Source of the DNA: Verrucomicrobia bacterium UBA1211
Lineage (GTDB): Bacteria; Verrucomicrobiota; Kiritimatiellia; RFP12; UBA1067
Length of the DNA stretch: 57,210 nt
NCBI GenBank assembly: GCA_002309585.1
Contig: DBXN01000140.1
Span: forward strand, 23,780-80,989
Direction: 5' to 3'
In this document: positions 30,576 to 51,683 of the stretch, piece after piece
Layout: the number at the start of each line of letters is the position of its first letter
Numbering within the stretch: position 1 is the first letter of the stretch
Made by a program: the position numbers and the translations under genes
Notes under the pieces: generated by a model
Told to the model about the DNA's origin: nothing
What the model saw: only the letters and a program-made list of their open reading frames with translations
Databases searched by the model: none

Positions 30576-30578
30576 GCG

Positions 30579-31809: not shown

Positions 31810-31884
31810 GCAACGTTCCTCGGGGAACGGGGAAGAGGACTTGACGTTTCTTGATTTTAGGTCGCGATAAAAGGGGATGATACG

Positions 31885-32556
31885 ATGCGGAACTTCAGAG
31901 TGGGGGCATGGATTATGTTTTTGGGCGGGATGGCGGCGGCAATCGCCATTCTGGCGTGGGGCATGAAGGACAGGCGGCCGGTTTTGGTCTGCCTGGGGGA
32001 CAGCCTGACCTCCTGCGGGGGAAAGGGAGGCCATTACAGCGACTGGCTGCAGCGACAGATGCCGGATGTCTGTGTGGTCGATGCGGGTATCGGCGGGGAT
32101 ACGCTCGACGGCGGCTTACGCCGTTATTCCAAGGATGTGCTGGAACGCCATCCCGATGTGGTTTTGATCGCATTGGGGGCGAATGATTTCTGGCGCAATT
32201 CCCGGACGGTCAAAGAGATGTTCGCCGATCTGGAGTCTATGATCGTCCAGGCGAAGGCGATAGGTTGCGAGGTGGTTGTGGCCGGCTGTTTCGGGAAGCG
32301 TGACTTCTGGAACGAGATCTGCACGGAATTCAGCGCGTCGCGGTTCAAACTCGCGTCGGACATGGGTGCGGCGGAGGAGGCGCTTTGCCGAAAATACAAG
32401 TGCCGTTACGTGCCGAACATGCAGGTGGATGTGAAACCCAACCGTCTCGCGCCGTTCTGGGATGAGACCGATCATCCGAACAAGGCCGGAAATGAGCAGG
32501 TCGCGCTCCGTCTCCTTCCCGCGCTTCGTAAAGCGGTGGCTGCGAAGCGGAAGTGA
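31885..32556 (+). CDS. SGNH/GDSL-family hydrolase with N-terminal anchor
   Basis: Block I LGDSLT, block III GGDT, block V-region GANDF, and late DxxH-like DHPN. Confidence 0.7.
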   Translation: MRNFRVGAWIMFLGGMAAAIAILAWGMKDRRPVLVCLGDSLTSCGGKGGHYSDWLQRQMPDVCVVDAGIGGDTLDGGLRRYSKDVLERHPDVVLIALGANDFWRNSRTVKEMFADLESMIVQAKAIGCEVVVAGCFGKRDFWNEICTEFSASRFKLASDMGAAEEALCRKYKCRYVPNMQVDVKPNRLAPFWDETDHPNKAGNEQVALRLLPALRKAVAAKRK

Positions 32557-32623
32557 ATGGGACACTGCGATTGGCGGATTCAGGATCTGGGGTTGTCGGG
32601 AGAGATCGGGAAAGGGGTTTGAA

Positions 32624-35449: not shown

Positions 35450-36024
35450 CGTTCTACCAGTGCTTCGCGGAGGGCCGATTCGGAAATGGCTCCTTCGCGG
35501 AGCACCGTCATGCGGTTCTCGGGGTCGATTTTGACGACGGTGCTCGCGATACCGCCGGGGGAGATGCCGCCGTCGATGATGAGGTCGGCTTCCAGACCGA
35601 CATCTTTCAGCGCTTCCGCCGCGGAGCAGGCGGGCATCTGACCGCTGAGATTCGCGCTCGTCACGCGCAGCACACCGCCGCACGCTTTCAGTAGCTGGCG
35701 TGTCGCGTCATGGTCCGGCACACGGAAGCCTTCATACCCCTCCCCGCAGGGCAGCACGAGGGTCAATGCGCCGGGCCAGAAGGTCTCCGCCAGTTTGAGA
35801 GCCGCATCGGGAAGCGTGGCGCCGAAGGCGCGGACCGACGCGAGGTCCGCCGCCAGCAGCGCGATCGGTTTGTCAGTCGGGCGGCCTTTGATCTGGCGGA
35901 TGCGGCGGACCGCGCCCGGACAATCGGGTTTCGCGCCGATGCCGTAGACGGTGTCGGTCGGAAGGATCACGACGCCGCCCGCATCGAGAATCCGTTGCGC
36001 ATGGATGAGTTTCGTGTTTTCCAT
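35446..36024 (-). CDS. tsaC: L-threonylcarbamoyladenylate synthase (TsaC/YrdC type)
   Basis: VVILPTDTVYGIGA, GRPTDKPIALL, LRVTSANLSG. Its ATG shares one nucleotide with the TGA of the upstream gene (TGATG at 36022-36026). Confidence 0.8.
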   Translation of the reverse strand: MENTKLIHAQRILDAGGVVILPTDTVYGIGAKPDCPGAVRRIRQIKGRPTDKPIALLAADLASVRAFGATLPDAALKLAETFWPGALTLVLPCGEGYEGFRVPDHDATRQLLKACGGVLRVTSANLSGQMPACSAAEALKDVGLEADLIIDGGISPGGIASTVVKIDPENRMTVLREGAISESALREALVER

Positions 36025-38783
36025 CACTTCTCCACCTTCTGCAACCGGCAGGCATCGCACCGCTCCAGGATGAAAGGCGGTTTCTTCCAGCCCCGGTAAT
36101 CCGTGTTCCAGATCACGGTATTGTCCTCGAAGATGATCTCGTCTGTCGAGAGCGCATAGAGCAACGGGACATCGAATGTCTCGAACCGGTTTCCGGTGAT
36201 CGTGAAGTGGCGGTGGTAGTGCCGTTTCTGGCTATTCTGATCCCGGATCATCGGATAGGCGGAGAGAATGCCGTTGCAGAACTGGAAGACCGAGGTCAGA
36301 CAGTTGCGGAAACGGTTCCCTCGGACGGTGACCTGTTCGCATGCGCCGGATTCGTACCACCCCTGCGCGTCACCCGCGAAGAGGATGGCGGAACCGGAGA
36401 CATGGTCGAAGTCGTTGTCCTCCACCAGCACGGAACGGGGTGTGGTGAAGAGCGCGCCGCGGGCGCGGTTGTTCCGCACCACATTTCCCCGGAAGATCAC
36501 GCTCGGTTGATAATCGGCGTTCTCCACGGCATCGCCCACGCCCAACCCGTCAGGGATCGGGGCGGAGAGGGTTAGGGTGAGTTCGCGGTCATCATGTCTC
36601 ACGATGCCGGCCACTTGACATTCAGGGCCGTTCTCCAGCGTTTTGCCCCGGATGAAGCGCAGGGTGTCGCGGAGGTTGAAGACATCGAAGCCGTAGGCCT
36701 GGCCATGCATATAACGGCAACGGATCCGTCTGTTGTCCTCCACGGCGGTGATACCGAGACAGGTGGAGTGGACGTTGATGGCGTCATCCATCATCGTCTC
36801 AAAAAGGCAGTTTTCGACTGTCACCTCCCCTTTGACGTTGGAGAAATGCGAGGCGTCCGCATGGAGAGTGGTGACCCGTTTGGAGCCGGGGGGGGGAAAA
36901 CAACCCGATTGGCCGTCCAGCGCCTTGCCGGTACCGCGCCAAATGATGTTCTCGGACATCTGCGCGATGACGCCCATGCCCCATGCGGTATGGATCGCGA
37001 TATTCTCCAGAACCGTGTCTTTCGCGTGGTCGATCACGATGGCGGGATAGGGCCGGCGTTCGGGACGCAGACAGACGATGTCCCCGACTTGGGCGCCGGC
37101 CCCGACTTTTGAGAAATCATACGGACAGACCAGGGTTCCGTCCGGACGTTCCGCCTCCACCGTGCCGAAGTAGGCGACATCGCAGGAACGTTCCACGATT
37201 TCGTGCGTGCTGCCCCGGAAGAGCATACTCGAACTGACCGGTGAGGTCCACCCTTCGCCAACAGCCAAAATATGCCCATTATTGACCCAGTAGGGGAAGA
37301 GGGTTTTGTCGATGGTTCCAAGCGTCTTGCCCGCTTCAAATCCGGTGATGGTCATCTCGGAGAGGAAGGGACGGGACCAATCCATCGTCAGGTTCTTGAG
37401 GGTAACCCGATTGGCGCGGAGGATCGCCGCGCCGAGGGTCGCACCGTGGAAAATCAGATGCGCCCCGTTTCCCTGCACGGTCAAATCTGACACGTCGGAG
37501 AAGGGCAGGTTGACCGGATGGGTGGGCGACTGGTCATGGTTGGAGATGAAGAACGCCATCTCCCGTCCCATTCCCACGCCGAAGTGATAGTCGCCCTTCT
37601 CCAGCTCGATCGTGCCGCCCCCCAACCGGCGGATTGCATCGATGGCGGAGAAGAAGGCGGCGGAACAGTCGCGGCCGTCCGGAGCGATGTGAAAAACACG
37701 CTCGCTTCCCTGTTTGGGGAAGAGTGCCAATGCCCATGCCGCCAGCCGTTTCCCCAGCGCTTCCTTCTCCGGCGGATGGATGTTTCCCGACGAGCAGATG
37801 TCCGCGCATTTGACGGCTGTGACATGTGGACAACGTTCGGGAACGCGGAGCTGTGCGGCCTGGATCGCTTTCCATGCCGCATCTTTCCTGTGATCGTAAT
37901 CCGCGATCTGGATGACGGCGAACGGCAGGTCCGGATGAAGCAGATCTTTCCGCCATTGCCCGATCATGGCCGCCAGCAGGTCCGCATAGACGGCGTATTC
38001 ACCCTTGCCGGTGTTGCTTTCACCCTGATACCAGAGAACGCCGGAGACCGGATAGGTGCCGATGAGCCGGAACGCCTTTTCGTACAGGATACCGGGACGG
38101 TTCCACTTTGAGAAGTAGGCGTGGGTGGCGTCGAAATGAAGCTCCTCCTTGGGCAGGACGAAGGCCGGCTGGTTCGCCAACGCGGCGGGCATCCAACTTT
38201 GGATGATGGATGCGCCCTGGTAGACGTTGATCAAACCGATCGCGATTCCTTTTTTAGCCTGCAGGGTCCGGCCGAAGTGGTAACCGATCGCCGACCAATT
38301 GCCGGCGTCGTTTTTCGTGCAGGGGACCCATCCGTCCTCCGGGGTGTGGGGTTCCGGTTCGGGGCGTGGCAGGGAGAACGAACGCATTAAAGGAAGATCC
38401 TCATACCGCTCCTTCGCGGTGTCCGATTCTCCCAATTTGAACTGCATGTTGGATTGGCCCGCCAATAGATAGACCTCCCCGACATAGATGTCCTCAAATG
38501 TGACCGTCCGTCCGTCGAGCGTGAGGTCCAGCGTGTAGGGGCCCCCATACGGTTCAGCCGGAAGTTCAAGGGACCAGTTCCCGTTTGCTGCAACCGCCTC
38601 GGCCCGTTTCCCGTTGAACACGGCAAGGGCTTTGCCCTCACCCGTGCCGTGGATACGGATCGGTCTTCCCGCCGCGAAGACCATGTGGGAGGAGAAAATC
38701 GGGGCGGGTTTCATCTCCGCTTTCGTGCCGGTGGCGGCGAGTGAGAAAAGAATGGTCAGGATGCATGTCGCGCGTTTTGTCAT
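36024..38783 (-). CDS. Secreted fusion: sialate O-acetylesterase-like domain plus right-handed beta-helix domain (GH110-like, tentative)
   Basis: The N-terminal ~330 aa carry GEVYLLAGQSNM and WYQGESN, typical of sialate 9-O-acetylesterases. The C-terminal ~580 aa begin GGTIELEKGDYHF...FISNHDQ and continue with repeated beta-helix turns. Confidence 0.6.
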   Translation of the reverse strand: MTKRATCILTILFSLAATGTKAEMKPAPIFSSHMVFAAGRPIRIHGTGEGKALAVFNGKRAEAVAANGNWSLELPAEPYGGPYTLDLTLDGRTVTFEDIYVGEVYLLAGQSNMQFKLGESDTAKERYEDLPLMRSFSLPRPEPEPHTPEDGWVPCTKNDAGNWSAIGYHFGRTLQAKKGIAIGLINVYQGASIIQSWMPAALANQPAFVLPKEELHFDATHAYFSKWNRPGILYEKAFRLIGTYPVSGVLWYQGESNTGKGEYAVYADLLAAMIGQWRKDLLHPDLPFAVIQIADYDHRKDAAWKAIQAAQLRVPERCPHVTAVKCADICSSGNIHPPEKEALGKRLAAWALALFPKQGSERVFHIAPDGRDCSAAFFSAIDAIRRLGGGTIELEKGDYHFGVGMGREMAFFISNHDQSPTHPVNLPFSDVSDLTVQGNGAHLIFHGATLGAAILRANRVTLKNLTMDWSRPFLSEMTITGFEAGKTLGTIDKTLFPYWVNNGHILAVGEGWTSPVSSSMLFRGSTHEIVERSCDVAYFGTVEAERPDGTLVCPYDFSKVGAGAQVGDIVCLRPERRPYPAIVIDHAKDTVLENIAIHTAWGMGVIAQMSENIIWRGTGKALDGQSGCFPPPGSKRVTTLHADASHFSNVKGEVTVENCLFETMMDDAINVHSTCLGITAVEDNRRIRCRYMHGQAYGFDVFNLRDTLRFIRGKTLENGPECQVAGIVRHDDRELTLTLSAPIPDGLGVGDAVENADYQPSVIFRGNVVRNNRARGALFTTPRSVLVEDNDFDHVSGSAILFAGDAQGWYESGACEQVTVRGNRFRNCLTSVFQFCNGILSAYPMIRDQNSQKRHYHRHFTITGNRFETFDVPLLYALSTDEIIFEDNTVIWNTDYRGWKKPPFILERCDACRLQKVEK

Positions 38784-38901: not shown

Positions 38902-38930
38902 TTGCGTGGCGGGGTGGGGTGTGGTAAACT
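38902..38930 (+). promoter_or_regulatory. Candidate sigma70-type promoter for the APE-like operon
   Basis: TTGCGT (38902-38907), 17 nt spacer, TAAACT (38925-38930), about 40 nt before the start at 38972. Pattern match only. Confidence 0.3.
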
Positions 38931-38971
38931 ATCTTTGTTCGTGAGAGGATGGCGTTGCGGGACGGGATGGT

Positions 38972-40312
38972 GTGATGGCGAGTGAGGAAGAGAGCAGACG
39001 GGTAACGGAGTTTCAGACATCCGGCAGCACGGGTGTGCCTAAACGGATCGTCAAGACGGAGGCTTCGCTGGAGGCGGATGCCGCGTGTTTGGCGCGGACG
39101 TTTTCAGCATGGCTGAAGGCGCGTCCGACGGTCGTCTCAACCGTCCAGCCCCATCACATGTACGGCCAGCTCTGGCGGATTCGCATGCCCCAAGCCGCGG
39201 GATATCCGGTGGATCCCGCGATCGTCCTCTCTCCCGATGAGCTGCTGGCGCGGGTCGCGCGCTGTCCGGCGGTTCTCTTCGTAACGACGCCTTCCTTCCT
39301 TGAGAAGCTGGTTGACGATCCGATCGTCCGCGCGTTGCCCCGCCGGTTCGCCGGTGTGGTTACGTCCGGAAGCCTGTTGCGGCAACCGCTTTCCGCCCGC
39401 GTCGAAGCGCTGATGGGCGTCTCGCCGATCGAGATATTCGGAAGTACGGAGACGGGCAGCGTGGCCTGGCGCCAACAGTGTGACGGCGCGGCCTGGAGGG
39501 TTTTTGACGGGGTGGAGATCGCGGCTGAGCCGGATGGGAGGCTTCGGGTCGATTCCCCGTTCTGCGTGACGCGCCCCTTTGTGATGAGCGATGGCGTGAC
39601 GCTCCTTTCGCCCCGTTCCTTTCTGCTGGAGGGACGGCGGGACCGGTGCGTGAAGATCTTGGAAAGGATGGTCGCCTTGCCGCAGGTGGAGGCGGCGTTG
39701 CAGACCCATCCCTACATCGATTCGGCCCACGCGGTCGCGTCAGATACGGCGGTGCCGCGCATCTGGGTCTTGGCGACGTTGACCGATGCGGGAAAGGCGG
39801 CGTTGAAGGCATCGACCTATCATGATGTCATCCGCACCCTTTCCCTCGCGATGGGGGAATCCCTGCCGCCGCAGGCGGTTTTCCGCCGCATCCGGTTTGT
39901 CTCATCGCTTCCCTACAATCCTCAAGGAAAACTCACGCTTGAGCGGGTGCTTCCCCTGTTGAAATCCCCGCTTCAGGAACCGGTGGCGGAGGATTGGCGG
40001 TTCGATGGCGAGCGGTTGACCGCCAGTCTGACCTTCATTCCGGATGCCGTCTACTTCCAGGGGCATTTTCCCGGATTTGCGGTCCTGCCGGGTGTGGCGC
40101 AACTCTTCTTCATCCAGCGGTTTCTGGAGCACACCTTTCGGGTGTCGCCGTTTCCCGGCCGGTTGACGCGGTTGAAGTTTCTGAAACCGATCCTTCCGCG
40201 CCGGACGGTCCATTTTGAGCTCGAACGGCTATCCGGGGATCGCTTCTCCTTCCGTTTGTCAGACGGGCAGACGGCTTGCACATCGGGGGTGTTTGAATGC
40301 GGAACACCCTGA
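38972..40312 (+). CDS. Fusion of an N-terminally short adenylate-forming domain with a FabA/FabZ-type hot-dog dehydratase (ApeH+ApeI-like)
   Basis: Adenylation motifs TSGSTGVPK (residues 16-24), FGSTETG, GRRDRCVKI, PYNPQGKL. The C-terminal ~120 aa carry YFQGHFPGFAVLPGV (dehydratase His motif). Confidence 0.65.
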   Translation: MMASEEESRRVTEFQTSGSTGVPKRIVKTEASLEADAACLARTFSAWLKARPTVVSTVQPHHMYGQLWRIRMPQAAGYPVDPAIVLSPDELLARVARCPAVLFVTTPSFLEKLVDDPIVRALPRRFAGVVTSGSLLRQPLSARVEALMGVSPIEIFGSTETGSVAWRQQCDGAAWRVFDGVEIAAEPDGRLRVDSPFCVTRPFVMSDGVTLLSPRSFLLEGRRDRCVKILERMVALPQVEAALQTHPYIDSAHAVASDTAVPRIWVLATLTDAGKAALKASTYHDVIRTLSLAMGESLPPQAVFRRIRFVSSLPYNPQGKLTLERVLPLLKSPLQEPVAEDWRFDGERLTASLTFIPDAVYFQGHFPGFAVLPGVAQLFFIQRFLEHTFRVSPFPGRLTRLKFLKPILPRRTVHFELERLSGDRFSFRLSDGQTACTSGVFECGTP

Positions 40313-40992
40313 AGCCGGTTTGGATTGTCCCGGTCTATCGCCACGTTGAGCCGGTCCGGGAGGTGATCGCGCGCCTCCGGGAGACGCCGTATCCCGTGGT
40401 GGCGGTGGATGACGGAAACGACGTGCCGTTGGCCCTGCCGGATGTGACGGTGCTTCGTCATGCGCGGAATATGGGGAAAGGTGCGGCGATCGCGACGGCT
40501 CTGCGCTGGGCGGAGGGAGAGGGGTATACCCATGCGATCCAGATCGACGCGGATGGCCAGCATCGGATCGCGGACGCCTTGACGCTGGTGGAGAGGGCGG
40601 AGAAGGAACCCGAGGCGTTGATTTCGGGATTCCCCGTGTATGACGCGACGGTTCCCGCCGCGCGGGCGTCGGGACGGAAGGTGACCCGTTTTTTTCTCTG
40701 GCTGGAGACCGGTGTCCGCGATGAGGACGGTTTGTGCGGGTGTCGGGTTTATCCTGCGGCGCGTTCCGTGGCGCTTCTTCCGCTGCTCCGGTGCCGGCGG
40801 ATGGGGTTTGACGCCGAGATCGTTGTCCGCTGGCTTTGGAACGGCTGGCCGTTGCGTTCCCAACCGGTTCATGTGACCTATCCCGAGAATGGTGTTTCCA
40901 ACTTCCGGATGATTCGTGATAATATCGCTTTCTTCATGTTGCACGCCCGGCTCTGTTTCCTGCGGTTGTTCCGATGCTATAAACGGTGCTGA
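40297..40992 (+). CDS. Family 2 glycosyltransferase (ApeJ-like)
   Basis: Short GT-A protein: VPVYRH, VVAVDDGNDVP, IQIDADGQH (DxD). Overlaps the previous gene by 16 nt. Confidence 0.65.
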   Translation: MRNTLKPVWIVPVYRHVEPVREVIARLRETPYPVVAVDDGNDVPLALPDVTVLRHARNMGKGAAIATALRWAEGEGYTHAIQIDADGQHRIADALTLVERAEKEPEALISGFPVYDATVPAARASGRKVTRFFLWLETGVRDEDGLCGCRVYPAARSVALLPLLRCRRMGFDAEIVVRWLWNGWPLRSQPVHVTYPENGVSNFRMIRDNIAFFMLHARLCFLRLFRCYKRC

Positions 40993-41033
40993 AGGTGGGG
41001 GATGTGGATATGGACGGAGAGAGAGGAGAGAGA

Positions 41034-41450
41034 ATGGGTACGACCTATCGGCATTCGATCAAAATCCCGTTTTACGATGTGGATTCCATGCGGATCGTTT
41101 GGCATGGGCACTATGTGAAATATTTCGAAGAGGCGCGGTGCGGGTTCTTTGAACACCTCGGCATGACTTATGACGAGATGGAGCGGGCGGGATTTCTGAT
41201 TCCCGTGATCGGGCTGACGATCAAGTATGTACGGCCATGCGTCTTCGGGCAGACGATCTGGATCGATGTGACCGCCGACGAGACGAACGACAACCTGCTG
41301 GTTCTCTCCTATCTAGTCCGGGATGCCGCGACGGGCGAACGGATGTGTAAGGGAAGTACCCGTCACGCCGCCGTGAACCGCGATACGCGCGAACTGCTTT
41401 TTGAGTTGCCCGCTGAGTTTTTGCGGCGGATGAGGGGAGGTAAGGCATGA
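41034..41450 (+). CDS. 4HBT/YbgC-type acyl-CoA or acyl-ACP thioesterase (ApeK-like)
   Basis: YRHSIKIPFYDVDSMRIVWHGHYVKYFEEAR is the hot-dog thioesterase signature with a catalytic Asp. GGAGAG RBS before the ATG at 41034. Confidence 0.7.
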   Translation: MGTTYRHSIKIPFYDVDSMRIVWHGHYVKYFEEARCGFFEHLGMTYDEMERAGFLIPVIGLTIKYVRPCVFGQTIWIDVTADETNDNLLVLSYLVRDAATGERMCKGSTRHAAVNRDTRELLFELPAEFLRRMRGGKA

Positions 41451-42034
41451 GAAAATGGATTTGGCTGATGGTTGCGGCCTCTCTGGCGCTGACGCTGCGG
41501 GCGAAAGAACCGCCCGCCCGTTTCGTGTCGGCGGTGAGGCGCGCGTTGGATGCCGATGCGGAATGGACGATGGCGAAGACCACGGTCTCGCCGGCATTGA
41601 CGGTTGAATCGTCCGGGGTCGTCTCCTGTTTCGCGGGACGGGGAATCGTCTGGCAGATGCGCGAGCCGTTTATGCATGAGTATCGGATGACGACCAACAC
41701 GCTGGCGATCGTCTCGGAGCTCGGCACGGAGACGAAGGGGTTAAAGGATTTGCCGTATTACGCCTCGATCCGTCAGCAGACCGATCGCCTTCTGGCGGGA
41801 GAGACGGCGCCGTTCTCGGATGCCTTCAACTGGACGTGGGAAGAGGTCGGTACGGGATGGACGATGCGGCTTCTCCCGAAGCGGCGTCAATTTTCCCGAT
41901 GGGTCAAGCAGGTGACGATCTGGGGCGGAGAGGCCATCGACCGCACGGCGATTGTTTACGCGAGCGGCGATCAGGCGGATATCCGGTTCAAGGAAACGGG
42001 ACAGAAGCTGCACAAGCTATGGGAAACAGAGTGA
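41447..42034 (+). CDS. LolA-like periplasmic lipid or lipoprotein carrier (ApeL-like)
   Basis: Signal peptide, ~190 aa, beta-rich. Its position between the thioesterase and the MMPL exporter matches APE clusters. ATGA overlap with the previous gene. Direct sequence recognition is weak. Confidence 0.5.
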   Translation: MRKWIWLMVAASLALTLRAKEPPARFVSAVRRALDADAEWTMAKTTVSPALTVESSGVVSCFAGRGIVWQMREPFMHEYRMTTNTLAIVSELGTETKGLKDLPYYASIRQQTDRLLAGETAPFSDAFNWTWEEVGTGWTMRLLPKRRQFSRWVKQVTIWGGEAIDRTAIVYASGDQADIRFKETGQKLHKLWETE

Positions 42035-42050
42035 GGCGGGCGCGCATCGG

Positions 42051-44990
42051 ATGAAGAACGGACGGACAATCGGGCGTATCCTCTTCCTGCTGCTGTTGGC
42101 GGTGGGGGCGGGATTGCTGTTTTTTTGCTTCCCGCCAGCCATTGAAACCTCGTTGTTCGCGTTGATCGGGGAAAAGGATCTCAACGTGCCCGAGGCCATC
42201 CGGAACCGGAGCGCGACCCAGCTTCAGGTTCTTTTTTCCGCGCCGGATTTTGACCGGGCGCGGGCGGTGGCGGACCGGTTCCATGAAGCGCTGGACCGCT
42301 CGGATTTCGAATCAATCCGTTTCAAAACAGATGGCGACGAACTTCGGACCTATCTTGATTTCTACCGCAGTCACGCCGGGGGATTGGTGAGTGATGATGA
42401 CCGCAAGACGCTTCAGGCGGGGGAGGGAAAGCGGCTGGCGCTGCGGACGCTGCACCGTCTCTACGGTTCGCCCGCGCCCGCCCTTTTCCCGCTGGACGCC
42501 GATCCGTTCGGCGTGTTGGGCGGGTTCGCCGCATCCCTTCCGCTATCCTTCTCCGGATGGCAGCCGGACGAGGGTTATCTGACGGCGGAAAGGGATGGGT
42601 GCGTCCATCTGCTGATGGCGTTGACTCTGGCGGAGAAACGGGCGACGGATCTGGCCTGGCTCCCGCAGATGGTCGCACGGCTTCACGCCCTTCGCGATGC
42701 GCTCGCCGCGCCCGATGTGACGATTCGGTTCTGCGGGGTCCCGTTCCATACCGTTGAGGTTTCCGAACGTTGCCGGAAAGACATCCAGATTCTTTCCGCC
42801 TTTTCCATTGTCTTCATCCTGTGTGTGGCATGGATCGCATTCCGTTCCTTCCGATTCCTCCCGCTCTTTCTCTTCTCCCTCACGCTCTCCACATTGGGCG
42901 GATTGATTGCGCTGGGCGCGGTTTTCCGCACGATCCATCTGTTGGCATGCGTATTCGGAACCACGCTGCTCGGTTTGACGATCGATTACTCCTTCCATTG
43001 GCTGCTCGCCGCGCGCGGGACGGAACCGGTCGCGTCCGGCAAAATCACGCGAAATCTCTTCGCCTCCTATCTGACCACTGAGGTGACCTTCCTTCCGCTG
43101 GCCTTTTCCGGCTTGCCCGTGTTGGCCCAGATCGCGATTCTGATGGGAGCGGGATTGACCGTCGCCTTGATCACGATCCTGCTCTTCTATCCGGAACCGC
43201 AACCGATACCCGCATCGACTCCGGCGCATCTTCCGAATCTGCGGTGGCTGTTGCTGCCCTTGGCCATCCTGATCGTTTGGGGGTTTTTGAAAGTCCGTTT
43301 CCAGACACCCGTCGGGGAGTTGCACCAACCCTCGCCCGCGCTGATGGAGGCGGAACAGCTGTTCCGAACCCTGAGTGGCAGTGATGATACCGGCAAGGGG
43401 CTGCTGCTGGTGCGGGGCGGGACATTGGAGGAGGTTTTGGAACGCGAGGAGTCGATTCCCTTGCCGCCCGGTCTCCCGCGTCTTTCCCGTTTCCTTCCCT
43501 CCCGGTCGCGGCGGATCGCGGATGATGCGCTGGTCCAGCGCCTTTACCGTGAAGAGGGTGGCGATCTGGCGCGGAAACTGAAACTCGATAAGCCCCTTAT
43601 CCCGCCCTCGGCACCCGAGGATTGGAATCTCCAGACCCTGCCCCGGGCGTGGACCTCCGCTTTCCTCTATCCCTATGAGGGCGGTTTCTATTCCCTGATT
43701 CCGCAGGCCGATTCCCAAACGGTTCTGCCGCAGGGGGTCACCTTCTATGCGCCGCGCCAGATACTCTCCGACCTAATGGCGCGGTATGAGCGGTTGACCC
43801 GAAAATTCCTGTTGGTCACCGCCGTGGCGTTACTGGTCGTTTTGGGCGCGCTCTTCCGTCGGCGGATGCCCGTGATCGTATTGCCCTCCTTGGGCGCGAC
43901 GCTCGCAGTCTTCGCGGGCATCGCCCTTTCCGGACAATCCGTCAACCTCTTCCACCTCCTGGCCTGTTTCATGGTGATCGGGATGAGCTTGGATTACACC
44001 ATCTTTCTCGCTTCCGGTTTCCATCATGCCTTGAAATCGGTTTTCTGTTCCCTTCTGACCAGTTTGGCGGGTTTCGGCGCGTTGGCCTGCGTGGCTTTCC
44101 CGCTGGTCCGTTCGATCGGGCAGGCGTTGGGGATCGGGCTGTCGGTCTCCTTCCTGATCGCCTACGCGATGCTGCGTCCCGCGCCGGAACAGGTGGAACA
44201 GGGCGCGTCCCCGCTCGGGCTGACCCTCGCCTGGTGGGTCTACAGGCTCTTCGGTAAACGGGTGCTGGACGGATTGGGGGGGATGATCGCCGGATGTGTC
44301 TGGCTGACGAATCGCAAGGTACGATATGAGGCGAAGTCTCTGCCCCGCCTCCGTCTTTTCACGCAGGGGATGATCGACAAACTGGTGGTGATGGCCGACG
44401 GAAAGGATCAGCCGGTCGTTGAATTGGCGGGGGGGACGGGCGACGGCATCCGATTCTGTCAGGCGGTCGAGGCGAAGCGGGGCGTCTTCGTGATCTCTTC
44501 CCATCTGGGGACGGTTGAGGTGCTGCCCGCCCTGGCGCGATGCCCGGCGCATGTCCACGCCTTCATGAAGGTGGAGCAGACCGAGGTCTTCAATGCGTTC
44601 TACGCCTGCCGCGCCCATCGGCCGGAGGTCTCCATCCATCCGCTTGAGACCTTCGGGATCGGTGAGGTGTTCACCATCGGCGATTGGCTTGATCACGGCG
44701 ATTGCGTCCTGATGGCGGGGGATCGCGGCTACGGCAAATCGCGGAAACGGACCTTCCTCTCGCACGAGGCGGATTTCCCTGAAGGGGTGTTCCGGCTGGC
44801 GAAGGCGCTGGAGCATCCGGTCTTCTTCGTGGTGTGTGTCCGGGATGCGCCGAACCACTATCGGGTGGAGGTGCAGGAAGCGGAGGGCGGTGCCGACCTG
44901 CTTGACCAGTATATCGCTTTTCTGGAGCCGCTGGTGCGGCGTTATCGGGAACAATGGTTTAACTGGAGTGTGCCATGCGAGTCGGATTGA
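42051..44990 (+). CDS. MMPL/RND-type exporter fused to a C-terminal LPLAT (LpxL/HtrB-like) acyltransferase domain (ApeM plus acyltransferase)
   Basis: Two 6-TM bundles separated by soluble loops, as in COG4258-type exporters. From about nt 44200 there is a soluble domain with SSHLGTVEV and MAGDRGYG, resembling lysophospholipid/lipid A acyltransferases. Start trimmed to the ATG at 42051. Confidence 0.65.
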   Translation: MKNGRTIGRILFLLLLAVGAGLLFFCFPPAIETSLFALIGEKDLNVPEAIRNRSATQLQVLFSAPDFDRARAVADRFHEALDRSDFESIRFKTDGDELRTYLDFYRSHAGGLVSDDDRKTLQAGEGKRLALRTLHRLYGSPAPALFPLDADPFGVLGGFAASLPLSFSGWQPDEGYLTAERDGCVHLLMALTLAEKRATDLAWLPQMVARLHALRDALAAPDVTIRFCGVPFHTVEVSERCRKDIQILSAFSIVFILCVAWIAFRSFRFLPLFLFSLTLSTLGGLIALGAVFRTIHLLACVFGTTLLGLTIDYSFHWLLAARGTEPVASGKITRNLFASYLTTEVTFLPLAFSGLPVLAQIAILMGAGLTVALITILLFYPEPQPIPASTPAHLPNLRWLLLPLAILIVWGFLKVRFQTPVGELHQPSPALMEAEQLFRTLSGSDDTGKGLLLVRGGTLEEVLEREESIPLPPGLPRLSRFLPSRSRRIADDALVQRLYREEGGDLARKLKLDKPLIPPSAPEDWNLQTLPRAWTSAFLYPYEGGFYSLIPQADSQTVLPQGVTFYAPRQILSDLMARYERLTRKFLLVTAVALLVVLGALFRRRMPVIVLPSLGATLAVFAGIALSGQSVNLFHLLACFMVIGMSLDYTIFLASGFHHALKSVFCSLLTSLAGFGALACVAFPLVRSIGQALGIGLSVSFLIAYAMLRPAPEQVEQGASPLGLTLAWWVYRLFGKRVLDGLGGMIAGCVWLTNRKVRYEAKSLPRLRLFTQGMIDKLVVMADGKDQPVVELAGGTGDGIRFCQAVEAKRGVFVISSHLGTVEVLPALARCPAHVHAFMKVEQTEVFNAFYACRAHRPEVSIHPLETFGIGEVFTIGDWLDHGDCVLMAGDRGYGKSRKRTFLSHEADFPEGVFRLAKALEHPVFFVVCVRDAPNHYRVEVQEAEGGADLLDQYIAFLEPLVRRYREQWFNWSVPCESD

Positions 44991-46096
44991 CGGCGCTGGG
45001 TTTGGTTTGCGCGTTGGGGGATGATACCCGGACGATCTTGGAACGGGCGTTGGCCGGCGACACGTCCTTCATGCGGCCGTGGACGGGGGTGCTTCCCGCC
45101 GGCGCGGTTTCGCCTTTCGGGCGCGTCGATCTGCCGGAACCGGAGGAGGCGGCCGAGCCGCGCTGCGCTCGTCTGCTGCGGATGGCGGCGGATCAACTGG
45201 AACCGGAACTGGCCTCGCTCCGGCGGCGCGTCGCGTGGGAGAGGGTCGGGATTGTCCTGGGGAGCAGCAATTCGACGATGGAGGAGTTTACGCGGTGTCC
45301 TTCCGGCGGGATCGACATGGCGACGCCCGCGACCTTCCTGAAAGGGGTGCTGGGGACGGGCGGTCCCGCGTGGGTTGTCTCCACCGCCTGTTCCTCCAGC
45401 GCGAAAGCCTTCGCCTCGGCCCGCCGGCTGTTGGCGGGCGGGATTTGCGATGCGGTGATCGTGGGCGGGGCGGACAGTTTTTCGCGTGTGGTGGAGAACG
45501 GTTTTCTCGCGCTGGAGGCGTTGAGCGGCGAATTGGCCCAGCCGATGGGGAAGCGGCGGTCGGGGATCAATCTCGGCGAGGGGGCGGCGCTTTTCATCAT
45601 GGAGCGGGAGAACGGTCCGGTTTCCCTGCTCGGGATCGGCGAGAGTTCCGATGCCTATCACCTGACCGCGCCCCACCCGGAAGGGCGCGGCGCGGCCGAT
45701 GCGATGCGGGCGGCGTTGGCGGATGCGGGGTTGCCCCCGGGAGCCATCGGATATATCAACCTGCATGGGACGGGGACCGTCTATAACGACCGGATGGAAA
45801 GTCTTGCCATTCGCGATGTCTTCGGACTCTCCGTGCCCTGTTCCTCCACGAAGCCGATGACGGGCCACACCCTGGGCGCGGCGGGGGCGATTGAGGCGGG
45901 CCTTTGCTGGCTGATGCTTGATGCGGGTGACCGGCTGCTGCCGCACGTGTTCGACGGGGAGCGGGACGAGACGCTTCCGCCGCTTCCGCTGGTCGGGCTG
46001 AACGAGCGTCGGCCGTGTCGGACGGCGCTCTCCAACTCCTTCGCCTTCGGGGGAAGCAACGCGAGCCTGATTCTGGGAAGGGAAGATCATGGATAA
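44975..46096 (+). CDS. Beta-ketoacyl-ACP synthase with intact Cys-His-His triad (ApeO-like)
   Basis: VSTACSSSAKAF (Cys), SDAYHLTAP (His), NLHGTGT (His), KPMTGHTLGAAG, SFAFGGSNASL. Confidence 0.85.
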   Translation: MRVGLTALGLVCALGDDTRTILERALAGDTSFMRPWTGVLPAGAVSPFGRVDLPEPEEAAEPRCARLLRMAADQLEPELASLRRRVAWERVGIVLGSSNSTMEEFTRCPSGGIDMATPATFLKGVLGTGGPAWVVSTACSSSAKAFASARRLLAGGICDAVIVGGADSFSRVVENGFLALEALSGELAQPMGKRRSGINLGEGAALFIMERENGPVSLLGIGESSDAYHLTAPHPEGRGAADAMRAALADAGLPPGAIGYINLHGTGTVYNDRMESLAIRDVFGLSVPCSSTKPMTGHTLGAAGAIEAGLCWLMLDAGDRLLPHVFDGERDETLPPLPLVGLNERRPCRTALSNSFAFGGSNASLILGREDHG

Positions 46097-46544
46097 ACTG
46101 CCGCTGGAGAAGGTTCTGCCGCATCGGGCGCCGATGATTCTGCTGAGCGATTATGACCCCGATTCCTTTTCGGAGGAAGAGGTGAGCGCGTCGGTGACGG
46201 TGACGGACGGTGATGTCTTTTATGATGCCGCCTTGGAGGGCGTCCCCGCTTCGGTCGCGTTGGAGTATATGGCGCAGACCGTCGCCTGTTATGTCGGGCT
46301 GGTCCAGGTCCGCAATGGACGGGATCCCCGAATCGGGTTCGTGCTGGGGTCGCGGAAGATCGACATCACGATTCCCGTTTTCAAAAAGGGGGCGCGGTAT
46401 GGCATCCGCGCGCGGCTCCTCTTTACGGATGACGCCTTCGCCTCGTTTGAGACGGTCATCACCGATGCCGATGGCGGGGTTGTCGCCAGCGGGATCCTGA
46501 ACGCCTTTCAGCCGGAAGATCCGTACGCGCACGTTTCCCCTTGA
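46089..46544 (+). CDS. Hot-dog fold 3-hydroxyacyl-ACP dehydratase (ApeP-like)
   Basis: LPHRAPMILLSD N-terminal motif and ~150 aa size. Overlaps the KS gene by 8 nt. Confidence 0.6.
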   Translation: MDKLPLEKVLPHRAPMILLSDYDPDSFSEEEVSASVTVTDGDVFYDAALEGVPASVALEYMAQTVACYVGLVQVRNGRDPRIGFVLGSRKIDITIPVFKKGARYGIRARLLFTDDAFASFETVITDADGGVVASGILNAFQPEDPYAHVSP

Positions 46545-46618
46545 CTTATCGGCACCAGTTTAAGATACTCTTTTCCATCATCAATTTTGAATACGAATCC
46601 GGTCAGGAGAATTACGGG

Positions 46619-48154
46619 ATGAAGAGACAAATGTGGTATTATCGGATGGCGGAAGTGGCGGTTCTCTCCTTGGTGACGGGGATGACCGCATTGGGCGGCC
46701 AGATTTTCGACGGCGACGGTTCCGATGAGCCGGGTTTTGTTCCGCCGCCCCCGCGTAAAGAGGTCCCGCCGCCGCCCGCGAACATGTCCGGCGGCGAGAC
46801 GTTTGTTCCCTATCCGCCGCCGCCCGCGACGCCGATGTCCCGTTCCGAAAAGAAGAATCCGCCCAAACCCCCGACGATGTTCACCAAGCTGACCTCGCCG
46901 TATGGGGAGGTGGACTGGAATGCCCGCCCAAACGATCTGAACAATCTGCTGAAGTCGCTGAAGGGGATGGCGGATGTCGATTACGATTTCGAGGCGAAGT
47001 CGTTCTCCGAGATCGACGAGGATCCCGATCAGAATCCGATTCTCTACCGTTCCGGTCATTTCCACTGGAGCCTCAACGCGGGGGAGAAGAAAAAGCTCCG
47101 CGATTATCTGCTCCGGGGCGGGACGATCATCCTCAATGCGGGCATGGGATCCAAGCCGTTTTACGATTCGGCGATCCGGGTGCTGAATGAGGTCTTCCCC
47201 GAGGCGCCGGTGCAGCGGCTGAGCGCAGACCACCCGATCTTCCACGCCTACTACTCGCTGGACAAGGTGAACTACCGTCCGGGCGTCCGTGCCGTCTACA
47301 AGGGGAACGACCCGTGGCTGGACGGCGTGACCATTGACTGCCGGACGGTCGCGATCATCTCCCGGTTCGGGATGGAGGTCGGCTGGGATCCGCTGGAGGA
47401 TGACAACATCCTGGCGTATGAGCAGGAGTCCGCGCAACAGCTTGGGATGAACATTTTGAGTTACGCCAGCGCGATGCGTAACTGGACGCTGGAGAACATG
47501 AAGAAGACCAAATTCGAGGACTCGAAGCAGGTCTCCGACGCGGGATCGATGAATATCGCCCAGGTGATCTACAGCGGCGAATGGAAGACCCGTCACGTCG
47601 GCCTCTCGGTTCTGCTCTCGCAGTACAATGTCCAGACCGGCGTCCCGGTCAAATTCACGACGAAAGAGATGAAGCTGACCGATCCCAAACTCTTCGATTC
47701 GCCGATTCTCTATCTGACCGGGCATGAGACCTTCACCCTGAAGCCCGAGGAGATTACCGCGCTGAGGACCTATCTCAATGGCGGCGGGCTGCTTTTCGCC
47801 GAGGCCTGCTGCGGACGGAAGGCGTTTGATGTCTCCTTCCGCGCGATCATGTCGCAGGTTCTGCCCGGTGTCCAGCCGTCGATGCTGGGGCAGGGCCATC
47901 CGCTCTACAAGCTCCCCAACACCATCACTACCATGAAGGTGACGCCCGCCTGCGCCAAGTCATTCAACAACGCGCCGGCGATCGCCCCGCAGATTCTCAC
48001 CTGGATGGTGGACGGCAACCCCGCCGTGATCTACAGCCCGATCGGCATGGCGGGCGCCTGGGAACTTTCCCCCAACAAGTATTGCAACAGCTATCTAGAG
48101 GATGACGCCATCAAACTGGGCGTGAACATCCTGATTTACGCAAGCACAAGGTAA
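46619..48154 (+). CDS. Membrane-anchored protein with two tandem DUF4159-like domains
   Basis: Signal anchor and Pro-rich linker, then two copies of the pattern ...PILY(R/L)(S/T)GH..F.L...E...LR.YL..GG......C.G...FD.S.R......P. AGGAG before the ATG at 46619. Confidence 0.55.
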   Translation: MKRQMWYYRMAEVAVLSLVTGMTALGGQIFDGDGSDEPGFVPPPPRKEVPPPPANMSGGETFVPYPPPPATPMSRSEKKNPPKPPTMFTKLTSPYGEVDWNARPNDLNNLLKSLKGMADVDYDFEAKSFSEIDEDPDQNPILYRSGHFHWSLNAGEKKKLRDYLLRGGTIILNAGMGSKPFYDSAIRVLNEVFPEAPVQRLSADHPIFHAYYSLDKVNYRPGVRAVYKGNDPWLDGVTIDCRTVAIISRFGMEVGWDPLEDDNILAYEQESAQQLGMNILSYASAMRNWTLENMKKTKFEDSKQVSDAGSMNIAQVIYSGEWKTRHVGLSVLLSQYNVQTGVPVKFTTKEMKLTDPKLFDSPILYLTGHETFTLKPEEITALRTYLNGGGLLFAEACCGRKAFDVSFRAIMSQVLPGVQPSMLGQGHPLYKLPNTITTMKVTPACAKSFNNAPAIAPQILTWMVDGNPAVIYSPIGMAGAWELSPNKYCNSYLEDDAIKLGVNILIYASTR

Positions 48155-48262
48155 GGTTAAAAGATTAAGCAGGGGAACGGGGAATGGGGAACAGAGGGAA
48201 CAGGGAACAGGGAAGAGGGAATAGTGAACAGGGAAGAGAACGCTCAGCCCTCAACCCTCCTT
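48155..48262 (+). repeat. GGTTAAAAG module plus 13 in-phase heptamers (GGGGAAC ... CCTCAAC)
   Basis: 48172-48262: GGGGAAC GGGGAAT GGGGAAC AGAGGGA ACAGGGA ACAGGGA AGAGGGA ATAGTGA ACAGGGA AGAGAAC GCTCAGC CCTCAAC CCTCCTT. Confidence 0.9.
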
Positions 48263-48270
48263 TGTTGCGG

Positions 48271-49089
48271 ATGAAGCGGGTGAGAGAGACGGTCATGGCG
48301 ATACTCGCGTGTTGCGCGTTCGGCGCGTGGGGCGCGACCAAACAGGAGACGGCTTTTCTGTCGGTCTGGACGGTGCATAGCCAGTCGCCCGACAACCATG
48401 CGGCGGTCATCGCCGCCTGCCAGCGTGTCATGGACACCTCCGCCACCCTGGGTGAGTTCCTGCCGGTCGTCAAGACCTTGGCGGGATGGCATCTGCTCGC
48501 CTCAGGGAAAGAGGCCGATGCGATCCGGGTTTTGGAGAGTGTGCTGACAACAGACAAGAAGCCCGCGCCGATGGCCCGGTATGCCGACATCATGGCGCGG
48601 CGGTGGCTCTCCCGGCTGGACATCCGGAAGGTGGATGCCGCGTTGAAGAGCCACTACGCCGCGCATGTGGAATATCCCTCCTCCCTCGCACCGATTCTCT
48701 CGCTGCCCAAACCCGCCACGCCCGCGAAAACCGACCGGTTCGGCGATGGATGGATCTACCGGCTTTCGGGATTCAGCCGCCTGACCGATCTGAAGGCGCA
48801 GCGGTATGTGCTCTACAGCAAGACGCTCGGAACGTCGCTTTCCCGTTTGAGCGATCTGCCTTTTACCGCCTATTCTCCGCAGAAGTCCGTGACTTTCCTC
48901 AGCCGCAAGATGACCACGCCGCTGACGATCGAGATCGAGACCGTCGTGAACGGCGAGAAGCAGAAGGGCGTGGCGACCGAGGGCAACCTCTGCAATGGCG
49001 TCCGGTTCCTGAAACTCGCCTCCGACCTCCAGTTCGTCCTCTTCGCCGACAGCGAATGCGATTTCTGGCTTGTCTCAACGAAACGTTGA
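48271..49089 (+). CDS. Secreted hypothetical protein
   Basis: Signal-peptide-like MAILACCAFGAWG after the ATG at 48271. The upstream part of the track ORF (from 48184) is a translation of the heptamer repeat. No recognisable family. Confidence 0.4.
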   Translation: MKRVRETVMAILACCAFGAWGATKQETAFLSVWTVHSQSPDNHAAVIAACQRVMDTSATLGEFLPVVKTLAGWHLLASGKEADAIRVLESVLTTDKKPAPMARYADIMARRWLSRLDIRKVDAALKSHYAAHVEYPSSLAPILSLPKPATPAKTDRFGDGWIYRLSGFSRLTDLKAQRYVLYSKTLGTSLSRLSDLPFTAYSPQKSVTFLSRKMTTPLTIEIETVVNGEKQKGVATEGNLCNGVRFLKLASDLQFVLFADSECDFWLVSTKR

Positions 49090-49172
49090 GGGCAAGAGAC
49101 AATCACTGATCAATGATCACTGGACACTCTTCCCTCTTCCCTGTTCCCTATTTCCCGTTCCCTTTGTTTAAG
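49085..49172 (-). repeat. Inverted copy of the modular element: TTAAAC, GGGAAC-type heptamers, CAGTGAT units, CCCTCAAC
   Basis: The reverse complement reads CTTAAACAAAGGGAACGGGAAATAGGGAACAGGGAAGAGGGAAGAGTGTCCAGTGATCATTGATCAGTGATTGTCTCTTGCCCTCAAC. Confidence 0.8.
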
Positions 49173-49964
49173 TAATTCGGCGGCTTCGCGGCGGACATCG
49201 GGCATCATCGCCGATTCCGCAAGGGTCCGGAGGCGGGCCCGCTCCGCCTCCCCGATCCGGTTTTGACGGATCGCGATGCGGCATCGCATCAAGGTCAAAT
49301 CCTCCCGCTGGTACCGTTTCGCCGCCTTCGCTTCCAGCGCGGGCAGAGCGTCGGCCACGCTCTGCCACTCGCCGCACGCTTCAAGCAGTTGCAGGGCACG
49401 GAATGTCTGGGCATACGATTCTGAGGCGTTTTGGAGGGTCTGCGTTGAAAAGGCCCGGATCATCGGTGGCCAATCCGCGTGAAGGGCGATTTCGGCGAAG
49501 GCGAGTAGAAGCGGCGCGTCCGTTCCTCCGTATGCCGCGCCGAGGCGCAGGAAGTCGGCTTCCCGTTTGTCCGCCGCATAACGCTCCATCACCTCCGTGG
49601 CGAGCAGGTTGTCGCGGTGGCGGAGCAGGTAGGCCTCCGCCTCCCACTCGAAGTCGGGCCACGCCTTCTCCTCCCAGGCTAGGGCCAGATTCAGAAGGGC
49701 GGGATCGGAGGCGCGGTTCGCCCTCTTCCACGCTGCCAGGAGTTCCGACTTCTTTCCCTCCCTGACCGCCCGTCCGATCGCGTCTCCATAAACACGCCGG
49801 AAGGCAGACCAGTCGAGCGCCGGGGTCCCCTCCGGGAGAGCGGCCAAGATAAGCGGTGGCTCCGCCTGCTCCGGACAAGGTTTCTCCGTCTTCCCGCAGC
49901 CGGGGAGGACTACGCTTCCGAGAAACAGAAGGAAACCCCACGCAAAAATGGAATGGGTGGCCAT
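49110..49964 (-). CDS. Putative helical lipoprotein, unknown function
   Basis: Lipobox VVLPGC after a hydrophobic signal. The body is alpha-helical and Ala/Leu/Glu-rich. The last ~17 codons read into the repeat element. Confidence 0.45.
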   Translation of the reverse strand: MATHSIFAWGFLLFLGSVVLPGCGKTEKPCPEQAEPPLILAALPEGTPALDWSAFRRVYGDAIGRAVREGKKSELLAAWKRANRASDPALLNLALAWEEKAWPDFEWEAEAYLLRHRDNLLATEVMERYAADKREADFLRLGAAYGGTDAPLLLAFAEIALHADWPPMIRAFSTQTLQNASESYAQTFRALQLLEACGEWQSVADALPALEAKAAKRYQREDLTLMRCRIAIRQNRIGEAERARLRTLAESAMMPDVRREAAELLKQREREIGNREEGRVSSDH

Positions 49965-50375: not shown

Positions 50376-51683
50376 ATGAGTGGTCCGGTGCATGAATTGG
50401 CAGAGAAGTTGAACGGGGTGTTGCAGGCGGATGGAAGCCCTCTTTTCCGTTTTCTTTCCGCGAAGGGACAGCGCGCGTTCTTCCCTTCCACGGGAATTTT
50501 GGGGCAGGGGGCGCAAGCCAAAGGGGCGGCGATTAACGCCACGATCGGAACTGCGTTCGAAGAGGACGGAACCCCTTTGTCGCTGGAGTGCGCGGAGCGG
50601 TTGACGGCCCTGCCTTCAACCGCCTTTCTCTATTCCCCGAGTTCGGGCGTGGCGGCGCTGCGGGATGTCTGGCGGGAGATGCTTTTCGAGAAGAACCCCT
50701 CGCTGAAGGGTAAACGGTTCAGCCATCCGGTTGTGACGCACGCATTGACGCACGGCCTTTTCGTGGCGGGCCATCTCTTCGTGGGGGAGGATGACGCGCT
50801 TATCCTGCCGAATCTCTATTGGGACAACTACGAGCTGCTTTTCTGCGAGGGCTACGGTGCCCGACTCGACCTCTTCCCGATGTTTACCGCCGCGGGCGCC
50901 TTCAACGCCGCCGCGATGGAAGCGAAACTGATGGAGTCCGGCGAGCGGAAGATCCTGCTGCTGAACTTCCCGAACAATCCGACGGGTTATACCGCCACCG
51001 AGTCGGATGCGGTGGCCATCACGGCCTCGATCCGCCGGGCGGCGGAGGCCGGCAAGAAGGTTGTCGTGATTCTGGATGACGCCTATTTCGGTCTGGTCTA
51101 CGAGGAGGGCGTCTGCAGGGAGTCGCTGTTTGTGCATCTGGCGGATCTCCATCCGAATGTCCTGGCGGTCAAGCTCGACGGCGCGACCAAAGAGGATTAC
51201 GTGTGGGGGGTCCGGGTCGGCTTCATCACTTTCGCCTCCCAAGGTGCGACGGATGAACAGTACAGGGCGCTGGAGGCGAAAGCTGCGGGAACGGTGCGCG
51301 GCACGGTCTCCAACTGCAGCAACATTGGCCAGCAGATGATGCTCAAGATTTACCGTGATCCCGACTACGTGACGCAGAAGAGAGAGAAGTACGCGATCCT
51401 GAACCGGCGGTACCAGACGATTAAGCGGGAACTCGCCGCCCATCCCGAGTATGCCGAGAGTTTCACGCGGATGCCCAGCAACTCCGGATATTTTATGTGC
51501 GTCAAGCCCATCGGGGTCGATGCGGAGTCGGTGCGCCGTTGCCTGATCGAGCGGTTCAGCACCGGTGTGATTGTGCTGAACGGGCTGATCCGATTGGCCT
51601 TCTCCTCGGTTCCGAACGCGGCTTTGCCGACGCTCTTCGCCAACATCGACGCGGCGGTGCGGTATCTCAAGGAGCGGGCGTGA
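50376..51683 (+). CDS. Class I/II PLP-dependent aminotransferase
   Basis: LLLNFPNNPTGYT, DDAYFGLVY, and a conserved Lys region (VKLDGATKED). About 435 aa. Confidence 0.8.
   Translation: MSGPVHELAEKLNGVLQADGSPLFRFLSAKGQRAFFPSTGILGQGAQAKGAAINATIGTAFEEDGTPLSLECAERLTALPSTAFLYSPSSGVAALRDVWREMLFEKNPSLKGKRFSHPVVTHALTHGLFVAGHLFVGEDDALILPNLYWDNYELLFCEGYGARLDLFPMFTAAGAFNAAAMEAKLMESGERKILLLNFPNNPTGYTATESDAVAITASIRRAAEAGKKVVVILDDAYFGLVYEEGVCRESLFVHLADLHPNVLAVKLDGATKEDYVWGVRVGFITFASQGATDEQYRALEAKAAGTVRGTVSNCSNIGQQMMLKIYRDPDYVTQKREKYAILNRRYQTIKRELAAHPEYAESFTRMPSNSGYFMCVKPIGVDAESVRRCLIERFSTGVIVLNGLIRLAFSSVPNAALPTLFANIDAAVRYLKERA

Follow-up and report, generated by a model that had tools for sequence, protein, structure and literature searches.

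Does the seven-gene operon at positions 38972-46544 of a 57,210-nucleotide (nt) stretch of contig DBXN01000140.1 from Verrucomicrobia bacterium UBA1211 (the whole stretch is hereafter called the window) encode a pathway of its own, or only one part of a larger pathway? An initial annotation, made from the letters alone, had noted that the operon follows the apeH-apeP order of aryl polyene (APE) clusters and that several expected genes are missing, and had proposed a minimal variant that plausibly makes a short-chain acyl lipid or one derived from fatty acid synthase (FAS). Our analysis favors the second answer: the operon is most likely the apeH/I-J-K-L-M-O-P segment of an APE-type type II polyketide/lipid pathway whose genes, in a rumen Kiritimatiellia species, are divided between two or more loci. 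The apeQ-R-C-D genes persist as a separate operon, which follows a GFO_IDH_MocA gene on a different contig in a conspecific metagenome-assembled genome (MAG). The genes (g1-g7) and the two elements that bound the operon are as follows.

38902..38971, + strand: conserved upstream leader, where DNA homology to the nearest relative starts, with an extended -10-like TGGTAAACT at 38922-38930
38972..40312, + strand: g1, ApeH-type adenylating enzyme (an acyl-acyl carrier protein synthetase) fused to an ApeI hot-dog dehydratase; Pfam AMP-binding, AMP-binding_C and FabA/ApeI-like
40297..40992, + strand: g2, family-2 glycosyltransferase corresponding to the N-terminal half of E. coli ApeJ; Pfam Glycos_transf_2, E 7e-12
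40986..41450, + strand: g3, 4HBT-fold thioesterase (ApeK); Pfam 4HBT_2, E 3e-14, with 4HBT also matched
41447..42034, + strand: g4, LolA-like periplasmic lipid carrier (ApeL); weak NCBIfam LolA2_flexi match, E 1e-4
42051..44990, + strand: g5, RND/MMPL exporter (ApeM) fused to a C-terminal LpxL/LpxM-type acyltransferase (~44199-44990); Pfam MMPL and NCBIfam lauroyl acyltransferase
44975..46096, + strand: g6, ApeO-type elongating ketosynthase (KS); ketoacyl-synt N and C domains, and NF006618 at 410 bits
46089..46544, + strand: g7, ApeP hot-dog dehydratase; Pfam ApeP-like, 58.7 bits
46520..46569, + strand: rearrangement junction; homology to the nearest relative, L149, stops at window 46519

The seven genes are packed on the + strand, all with high third-position GC, and overlap by 16 nt (g1/g2), 4 nt (g3/g4), 16 nt (g5/g6) and 8 nt (g6/g7). 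Three of the open reading frames (ORFs) have two possible starts (38972/38975 in g1, 40986/41034 in g3 and 41952/42051 in g5). The likely start of g3 is the ATG at 41034, from which an independent call gives 138 aa. Gene calls made independently on two Logan metagenome contigs of identical sequence returned the same seven genes and, together with the ORFs, confirmed the order and overlaps that had first been described. The arrangement, including the flanking genes, recurs in independent assemblies (L067, L068 and L156-L158). Misassembly was considered and rejected, since the same junctions are found in at least five assemblies.

To assign each protein, we used Pfam and NCBIfam domains, and the weak assignments of g4 and of the C-terminal part of g5 were strengthened with profiles of 12 orthologues. 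In g1, residues 6-320 matched residues 130-438 of Leclercia ApeH (34% identity, E 2e-33), and residues 347-438 matched Leclercia ApeI (28% identity, E 4e-8). The C-terminal ApeI-like/FabA match (E 2e-3) is under the Pfam cut-off and is unmarked in the precomputed hits for the Logan contigs. The ApeH part, at the g1 N-terminus (38972-39020), opens at the TSGSTGxPK motif and lacks the ~129 N-terminal residues of proteobacterial ApeH, a short N-terminus common to all Kiritimatiellia homologues. The proteins encoded by g2 and g3 showed 38-43% and 34-44% identity, respectively, to the ApeJ and ApeK positions in proteobacterial loci (g2 by tblastn); the top NCBIfam match of g2 was a PpgS-like GalNAc-phosphoprenol synthase (66 bits, under the cut-off). 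The g4 profile matched PDB 8t5j, an 'outer membrane lipocarrier LolA family protein' (E 1.2e-13). Similarly, the profile of the g5 C terminus matched LpxM (5kn7, E 6e-6), 4 of the 12 orthologues reached Pfam Lip_A_acyltrans, and the L149 orthologue carries PF03279; an HX4E motif is present at ~44502-44519, with H102 and E107 invariant in the orthologues. In Enterobacterales, the two halves of g5 match two separate genes, namely the acyltransferase half of ApeJ, and ApeM.

The catalytic Cys-His-His-Lys of g6 is intact in an alignment to FabF, which bears out the Cys-His-His triad read earlier from the sequence. The top solved relatives of g6 were Xenorhabdus doucetiae ApeO (6qsp_A; 291 bits, E 1e-85) and then Acinetobacter baumannii ApeO (7f28_B); the 6qsp and 7f28 entries are ApeO structures (PMC8358021). 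For g7, the top PDB match was 6qsr_B (E 2.6e-16, residues 4-143). The synteny with ApeH-ApeP was upheld by tblastn against loci fetched with an ApeR-like KS: proteobacterial loci, including that of Leclercia, read G-H-I-J-K-L-M-O-P-Q-R, in agreement with the E. coli gene table (PMC8253772). The expected Pfam families (AMP-binding, FabA, Glycos_transf_2, 4HBT, MMPL and ketoacyl-synt) were likewise matched, with LolA and the acyltransferase firmed by the profiles. Compared in this way, all seven predicted proteins are orthologues of canonical Ape proteins.

The closest relative that we found was L149 (MAG GCA_017960125.1, contig JAGCZJ010000253.1), in which the orthologue of g6 is 82% identical. 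There, H/I-J-K-L-M-O-P runs straight into a ketoreductase (KR, apeQ), a KS (apeR), a Ketoacyl-synt_2 chain-length factor (CLF, apeC) and an acyltransferase (AT, apeD), making eleven contiguous genes. By blastn, window 38902-46519 is collinear with L149 604-8226 at 75.2% DNA identity, and the proteins are 66-85% identical. Homology stops at apeP codon 144; beyond it, g7 has 7 codons and a stop that show no relationship to the 15-codon tail of L149. The ApeP core matches its solved homologue up to residue 143, so the swapped tail lies outside the matched core. These alignments indicate that a rearrangement in the window lineage severed the cluster at the extreme 3' end of apeP. In L149 itself, a DUF6088/AbiEii toxin-antitoxin pair (11645-13244) follows the contiguous cluster, a hint of mobile DNA at the cluster end.

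No acyl carrier protein (ACP), short-chain dehydrogenase/reductase-type KR, second KS or CLF was present anywhere in the 57 kb window, as the initial annotation had also reported. With E. coli AcpP, FabG and FabF as queries, phmmer on all six-frame fragments of the window returned g6 as the sole match, and tblastn with ACP1, ACP2, ApeG, KR, KS2, CLF and AT of a complete relative detected nothing else. At the junctions, there were no traces of ApeG upstream of g1, and none of KR, KS or CLF downstream of g7. ApeN was found neither in the window nor among the Kiritimatiellia loci that we mapped.

We then searched with the ApeR-like KS of L149 and retrieved a protein 93% identical to it. Its contigs (L153, L154, L155, L159 and L160) carry a stand-alone KR-KS-CLF-AT operon behind a GFO_IDH_MocA gene. 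Homology between this second locus and L149 begins precisely with the start codon of the KR gene (L153 1717 = L149 8272; 80.8% identity), which makes it the complement of the breakpoint in the window. The L153 KS scored 477 bits against A. baumannii ApeR (7f27); the CLF (PF13723) matched the ApeC chains 7f28_A and 6qsp_B and is without the active-site Cys; the KR carries adh_short/KR domains; and ApeD corresponds to PF01553. In MAG GCA_017958965.1, contig 43 is the KR-KS-CLF-AT locus, and contig 111 is 98.95% identical to window 41510-49319 and spans the junction between apeP and the DUF4159 gene. Thus, the core APE genes were not clustered in one locus, Q-R-C-D being on another contig, and the window's species would appear to carry Q-R-C-D as a separate operon elsewhere in its genome. 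The initial annotation had named, as an outcome that would refute it, missing genes lying adjacent through a different operon split; in essence this is the case here, save that the KR, KS and CLF of the species are at another place in the genome.

MAGs can be chimeric, rumen samples hold many Kiritimatiellia, and an L149-type organism was present in samples of the same study. The KR-KS-CLF-AT contig might thus come from another related Kiritimatiellia bacterium, leaving the window organism without those genes. We regard such a binning artefact as highly improbable. The stand-alone Q-R-C-D is not of the L149 type, having 81% identity and another upstream gene, and its breakpoint is complementary to that of the window. 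Synonymous distances to L149 are alike (pS 0.47-0.57 for g1-g7 and 0.46 pooled for Q-R-C-D), and the offset in third-position GC is about -0.06 in both gene sets. Both loci also occur together in an unrelated Logan sample, SRR5324824, and no contig joining apeP to the second-locus KR variant was seen. Finally, among 2.5 Mb of fetched loci, a short A/T-rich intergenic repeat was common to the window and L153 only. This repeat consists of AAGGTTAAA-like units followed by GAGGGGAACGGGGAA, and lies directly after stop codons (window 2124-2147 and 54835-54866, also 13531-13552; L153 1573-1596); it may be a species-specific terminator or REP-like element. A 68-nt intergenic element with a GC-rich hairpin (GCCCCCGCCC...GGGCGGGGGC) is 88% identical between window 13645-13712 and L154 6356-6422 and had no Rfam match; apart from it, neither the 10.7 kb downstream of g7 nor any other part of the window had sequence in common with the second locus.

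How the two loci might work together can be pictured from the E. coli, Xenorhabdus and Acinetobacter systems. In E. coli, for which the ape gene roles and a gene table are available, ApeH is the enzyme that activates an aryl acid, 4-hydroxybenzoate or a similar one, and transfers it to an ACP (PMC8253772). ApeO acts as a heterodimer with ApeC, and ApeR raises throughput (PMC8358021). The Xenorhabdus product bears a galactosamine-phosphate-glycerol moiety (bioRxiv 10.1101/2020.12.19.423268). By analogy, ApeH would adenylate 4-hydroxybenzoate or a similar aryl acid and load it onto an ACP; ApeO, with the trans-encoded ApeC and together with ApeR, would extend the chain; and reduction by ApeQ followed by dehydration by ApeI and ApeP would yield a conjugated polyene. 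The polyene would be joined to a glycolipid anchor by ApeK, the family-2 glycosyltransferase, the LpxL-like domain and ApeD, and the product would be carried to the outer membrane by ApeL and ApeM. The window would then supply the enzyme that activates the starter, the KS for elongation, the two dehydratases, the thioesterase and the greater part of the module for anchoring and export, and the second locus would supply the KR, the CLF partner of ApeO, ApeR and ApeD. Judged from gene content, neither locus looks sufficient alone.

The operon could still be autonomous if, as first proposed, its single KS, dehydratases, glycosyltransferase and acyltransferase modified a FAS-derived acyl-ACP and a glycolipid other than an aryl polyene were exported. 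Such a seven-gene system would agree with the lack of ACP, KR, CLF and second KS within 57 kb, with the operon's own conserved upstream leader, and with the fact that dedicated ACPs were not located for the window lineage in the loci searched. However, ApeO-type KSs act in heterodimers with ApeC (PMC8358021), and the species encodes ApeC at its second locus. In the sister genome, the eleven genes lie side by side. Furthermore, Q-R-C-D of the species is intact and conserved, with a ratio of nonsynonymous to synonymous substitution rates (dN/dS) of 0.07-0.24, which would be hard to explain if the halves had functionally parted. A self-contained pathway is therefore quite improbable, and that part of the initial annotation is not supported.

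A pathway split over loci has parallels elsewhere in the clade. Complete Kiritimatiellia clusters read ACP-ACP-ApeG-H/I-(J-K)-L-M-O-P-KR-KS-CLF-AT, according to Pfam on L005 and to the locus maps. In many MAGs (e.g., CAKTUI01, JBNMKZ01, UBA1731, RUI187 and MAG46), E-F-G-H/I-L-M-O and P-(Q)-R-C-D-(Q)-J are located on separate contigs, and other Kiritimatiellia loci break after apeL. Splits into two to four loci are common in gut and rumen Kiritimatiellia. Among the ~300 loci that we examined, no other species had H/I-J-K-L-M-O-P by itself. Calls of the antiSMASH type for 'arylpolyene' already exist for gut Kiritimatiellae RFP12 MAGs (PMC10904984).

Other rearranged forms were also observed. In a tree, ApeO of MAGs RGIG3692 and UBA1200 is sister to that of the window; in these MAGs, apeO-apeP lies after ilvB-ilvN and apeR-apeC after ribBA, among housekeeping genes (L001/L002 10001-11564; L161/L162 9995-11828). 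In many relatives, ApeO and ApeP form one fused protein of 520-560 aa, with a KS and an ApeP-like domain (e.g., L005 9977-11638, P0004, P0006 and P0007). A Hadza-gut Kiritimatiellaeota MAG (L065 10001-10502) contains apeO as a pseudogene, broken into two pieces with 71% and 57% identity to g6; it has an N-terminal truncation and an internal deletion of ~110 codons.

Several points weigh against a functional pathway split over the two loci. The two loci are linked by MAG binning, by their co-occurrence in a sample and by similar divergence rather than by a closed genome. No characterised product has been reported for any Kiritimatiellia cluster of the APE-type family, and an ANL domain as short as that of ApeH may not be active. 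Within the species, dN/dS is 0.16-0.35 for g5-g7, at few sites, which is above that of the neighbouring DUF4159 gene. Neither the window nor the second locus contains the ACPs (ApeE/ApeF) or the membrane protein ApeG (COG4648), and they are also missing upstream of g1 in L149. A scan of the genome-contig collection with ACP2 showed that E-F-G leads directly into apeH/I in all other Kiritimatiellia loci retrieved, with no orphan copy, and the absence of ACP-ACP-ApeG could be a true loss.

Some of these points would also fit a remnant in decay, in which the seven genes, their pathway disrupted by the rearrangement, are turning into pseudogenes. The break took the native apeP tail, ACP and ApeG are unaccounted for, apeO pseudogene fragments occur in the related MAG L065, and the within-species dN/dS is somewhat above that of the neighbouring gene. 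By contrast, at least five independent assemblies, drawn from different studies, have all seven ORFs intact together with their translationally coupled overlaps, and the catalytic motifs are kept. Compared with L149, dN/dS is well below 1 for every gene (0.06-0.22; 0.19 for g1), and all seven genes are under purifying selection. With intact ORFs, low dN/dS and a changed ApeP tail that is outside the core matched to residue 143, decay of the operon is unlikely.

As to the carrier proteins, the L149 contig extends 677 nt upstream of g1, and this piece contains neither ACP nor ApeG. An ApeG protein search gave at least 8 matches, with those listed all from other lineages, and the three contexts inspected were contiguous E-F-G-H/I. 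In the genome-contig collection, from which the species is absent, the top g6 match was 61% and the top KS2 match 78% identical. As E-F-G is fixed to apeH/I elsewhere, the lineage of the window and L149 has either moved these three genes or lost them. We expect ApeE/F and ApeG elsewhere in the genome. That this lineage lost the tandem ACPs and ApeG, and that its dispersed APE machinery runs on the housekeeping ACP of FAS, is conceivable, although we doubt it. In L232 (694-1071), which represents the closest lineage whose cluster is complete, the tandem ACPs are preceded by a gene for a predicted lipoprotein of 125 aa (signal peptide end ...LLTSGC); this protein may be a counterpart of ApeA or ApeN, and no homologue was found in the window.

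We compared the operon with the known systems. Relative to the ape clusters (apeA-apeR) of E. coli CFT073, X. doucetiae and A. baumannii, its genes for ApeH, I, J, K, L, M, O and P orthologues are arranged alike, and the trans locus of the species supplies ApeQ, R, C and D. The KS triad, the Cys-less CLF partner and the ApeI/ApeP hot-dog pair are shared, and ApeR is 54-61% identical between the phyla. The differences are that the cluster is split over at least two loci; that ApeH and ApeI are fused, with ApeH ~129 N-terminal residues shorter; that the acyltransferase half of ApeJ is fused to ApeM; that ApeA, ApeB (methyltransferase) and ApeN (DUF3261) are lacking, and ApeE/F/G were not found beside apeH; and that the host is an anaerobic gut bacterium of the PVC group. 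Both fusions and the short ApeH are common to all Kiritimatiellia homologues.

Contiguous Kiritimatiellia clusters (e.g., L149, and the 'Candidatus Spyradenecus'/Lentisphaeraceae MAGs L003-L007, L069, L164 and L232+L231) have the same H-I and M-acyltransferase fusions and the same H/I-J-K-L-M-O-P order. Unlike the operon in the window, they run on into Q-R-C-D, all but L149 begin with ACP-ACP-ApeG, and some fuse ApeO and ApeP. The two-locus variants, such as those of CAKTUI01 (L008+L187) and UBA1731 (L015+L172), resemble the window in dispersing one pathway over loci of one genome. In these variants, however, the break follows apeO instead of apeP, the ACPs remain beside apeH, and the glycosyltransferase and thioesterase are placed otherwise. 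Flexirubin and xanthomonadin clusters and FAS II share the type II KS, KR and dehydratase chemistry and the LolA-like/RND export, and the top NCBIfam match of g4 was the flexirubin LolA2. In contrast to them, there is no DarA/DarB, ammonia-lyase or halogenase, and the KSs group with ApeO and ApeR, not with FabF/FabB. A ladderane or other KS-containing lipid cluster was considered and rejected; the match to Kuenenia was at 35% identity and without synteny. Taken together, these comparisons place the operon as a split member of the known APE family with lineage-specific fusions; it is no new kind of system or mechanism.

The flanks and possible control signals of the operon were also analyzed. 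Upstream, a 188-nt spacer separates g1 from a divergent sialate-esterase/GLAA-B gene. A sigma-70 consensus scan upstream of g1 gave no full match, and the promoter function of the 38902..38971 leader with its -10-like TGGTAAACT is putative. Downstream is the DUF4159 gene (ATG at 46619), preceded by a promoter-like TTGACT-17-GATACT inside which the g7 stop falls; a terminator scan after g7 found none. Rfam and tRNA scans of the window gave no matches. The surroundings (window 28971-38783 and 51497-53752) are rich in glycan-degradation genes, encoding a GDSL esterase, a SASA sialate esterase with GLAA-B barrels, beta-helix proteins and a 995-aa GH2 protein with an F5/8 type C domain. Housekeeping genes are interspersed among them, including those for a NadB-like FAD flavoprotein, a QueA-type queuosine-synthesis protein and a Sua5/YciO/YrdC-family protein, and ispG. 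The host is an uncultured gut or rumen Kiritimatiellia bacterium whose close relatives are all MAGs of such bacteria, and the exact window proteins are present in runs SRR094926 and SRR5324824.

These results have implications for how such loci are read. When only one window is read, part of a dispersed cluster can pass for a new minimal pathway, and distance-limited cluster mining of the antiSMASH type will under-call or mis-call such dispersed pathways. The comparison also documents lineage-specific fusions in gut and rumen Kiritimatiellia: ApeH-ApeI, ApeM-acyltransferase and, in some cases, ApeO-ApeP. The residual interest lies in the carrier protein that serves the window lineage and in the clade-wide unclustering of a classic biosynthetic gene cluster. 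If the tandem ACPs and ApeG have indeed been lost in favor of the housekeeping ACP, this, together with the apeO-P and apeR-C pairs among ilvBN and ribBA, would mean that a secondary-metabolite cluster is unclustering into a core envelope-lipid pathway in gut Kiritimatiellia.

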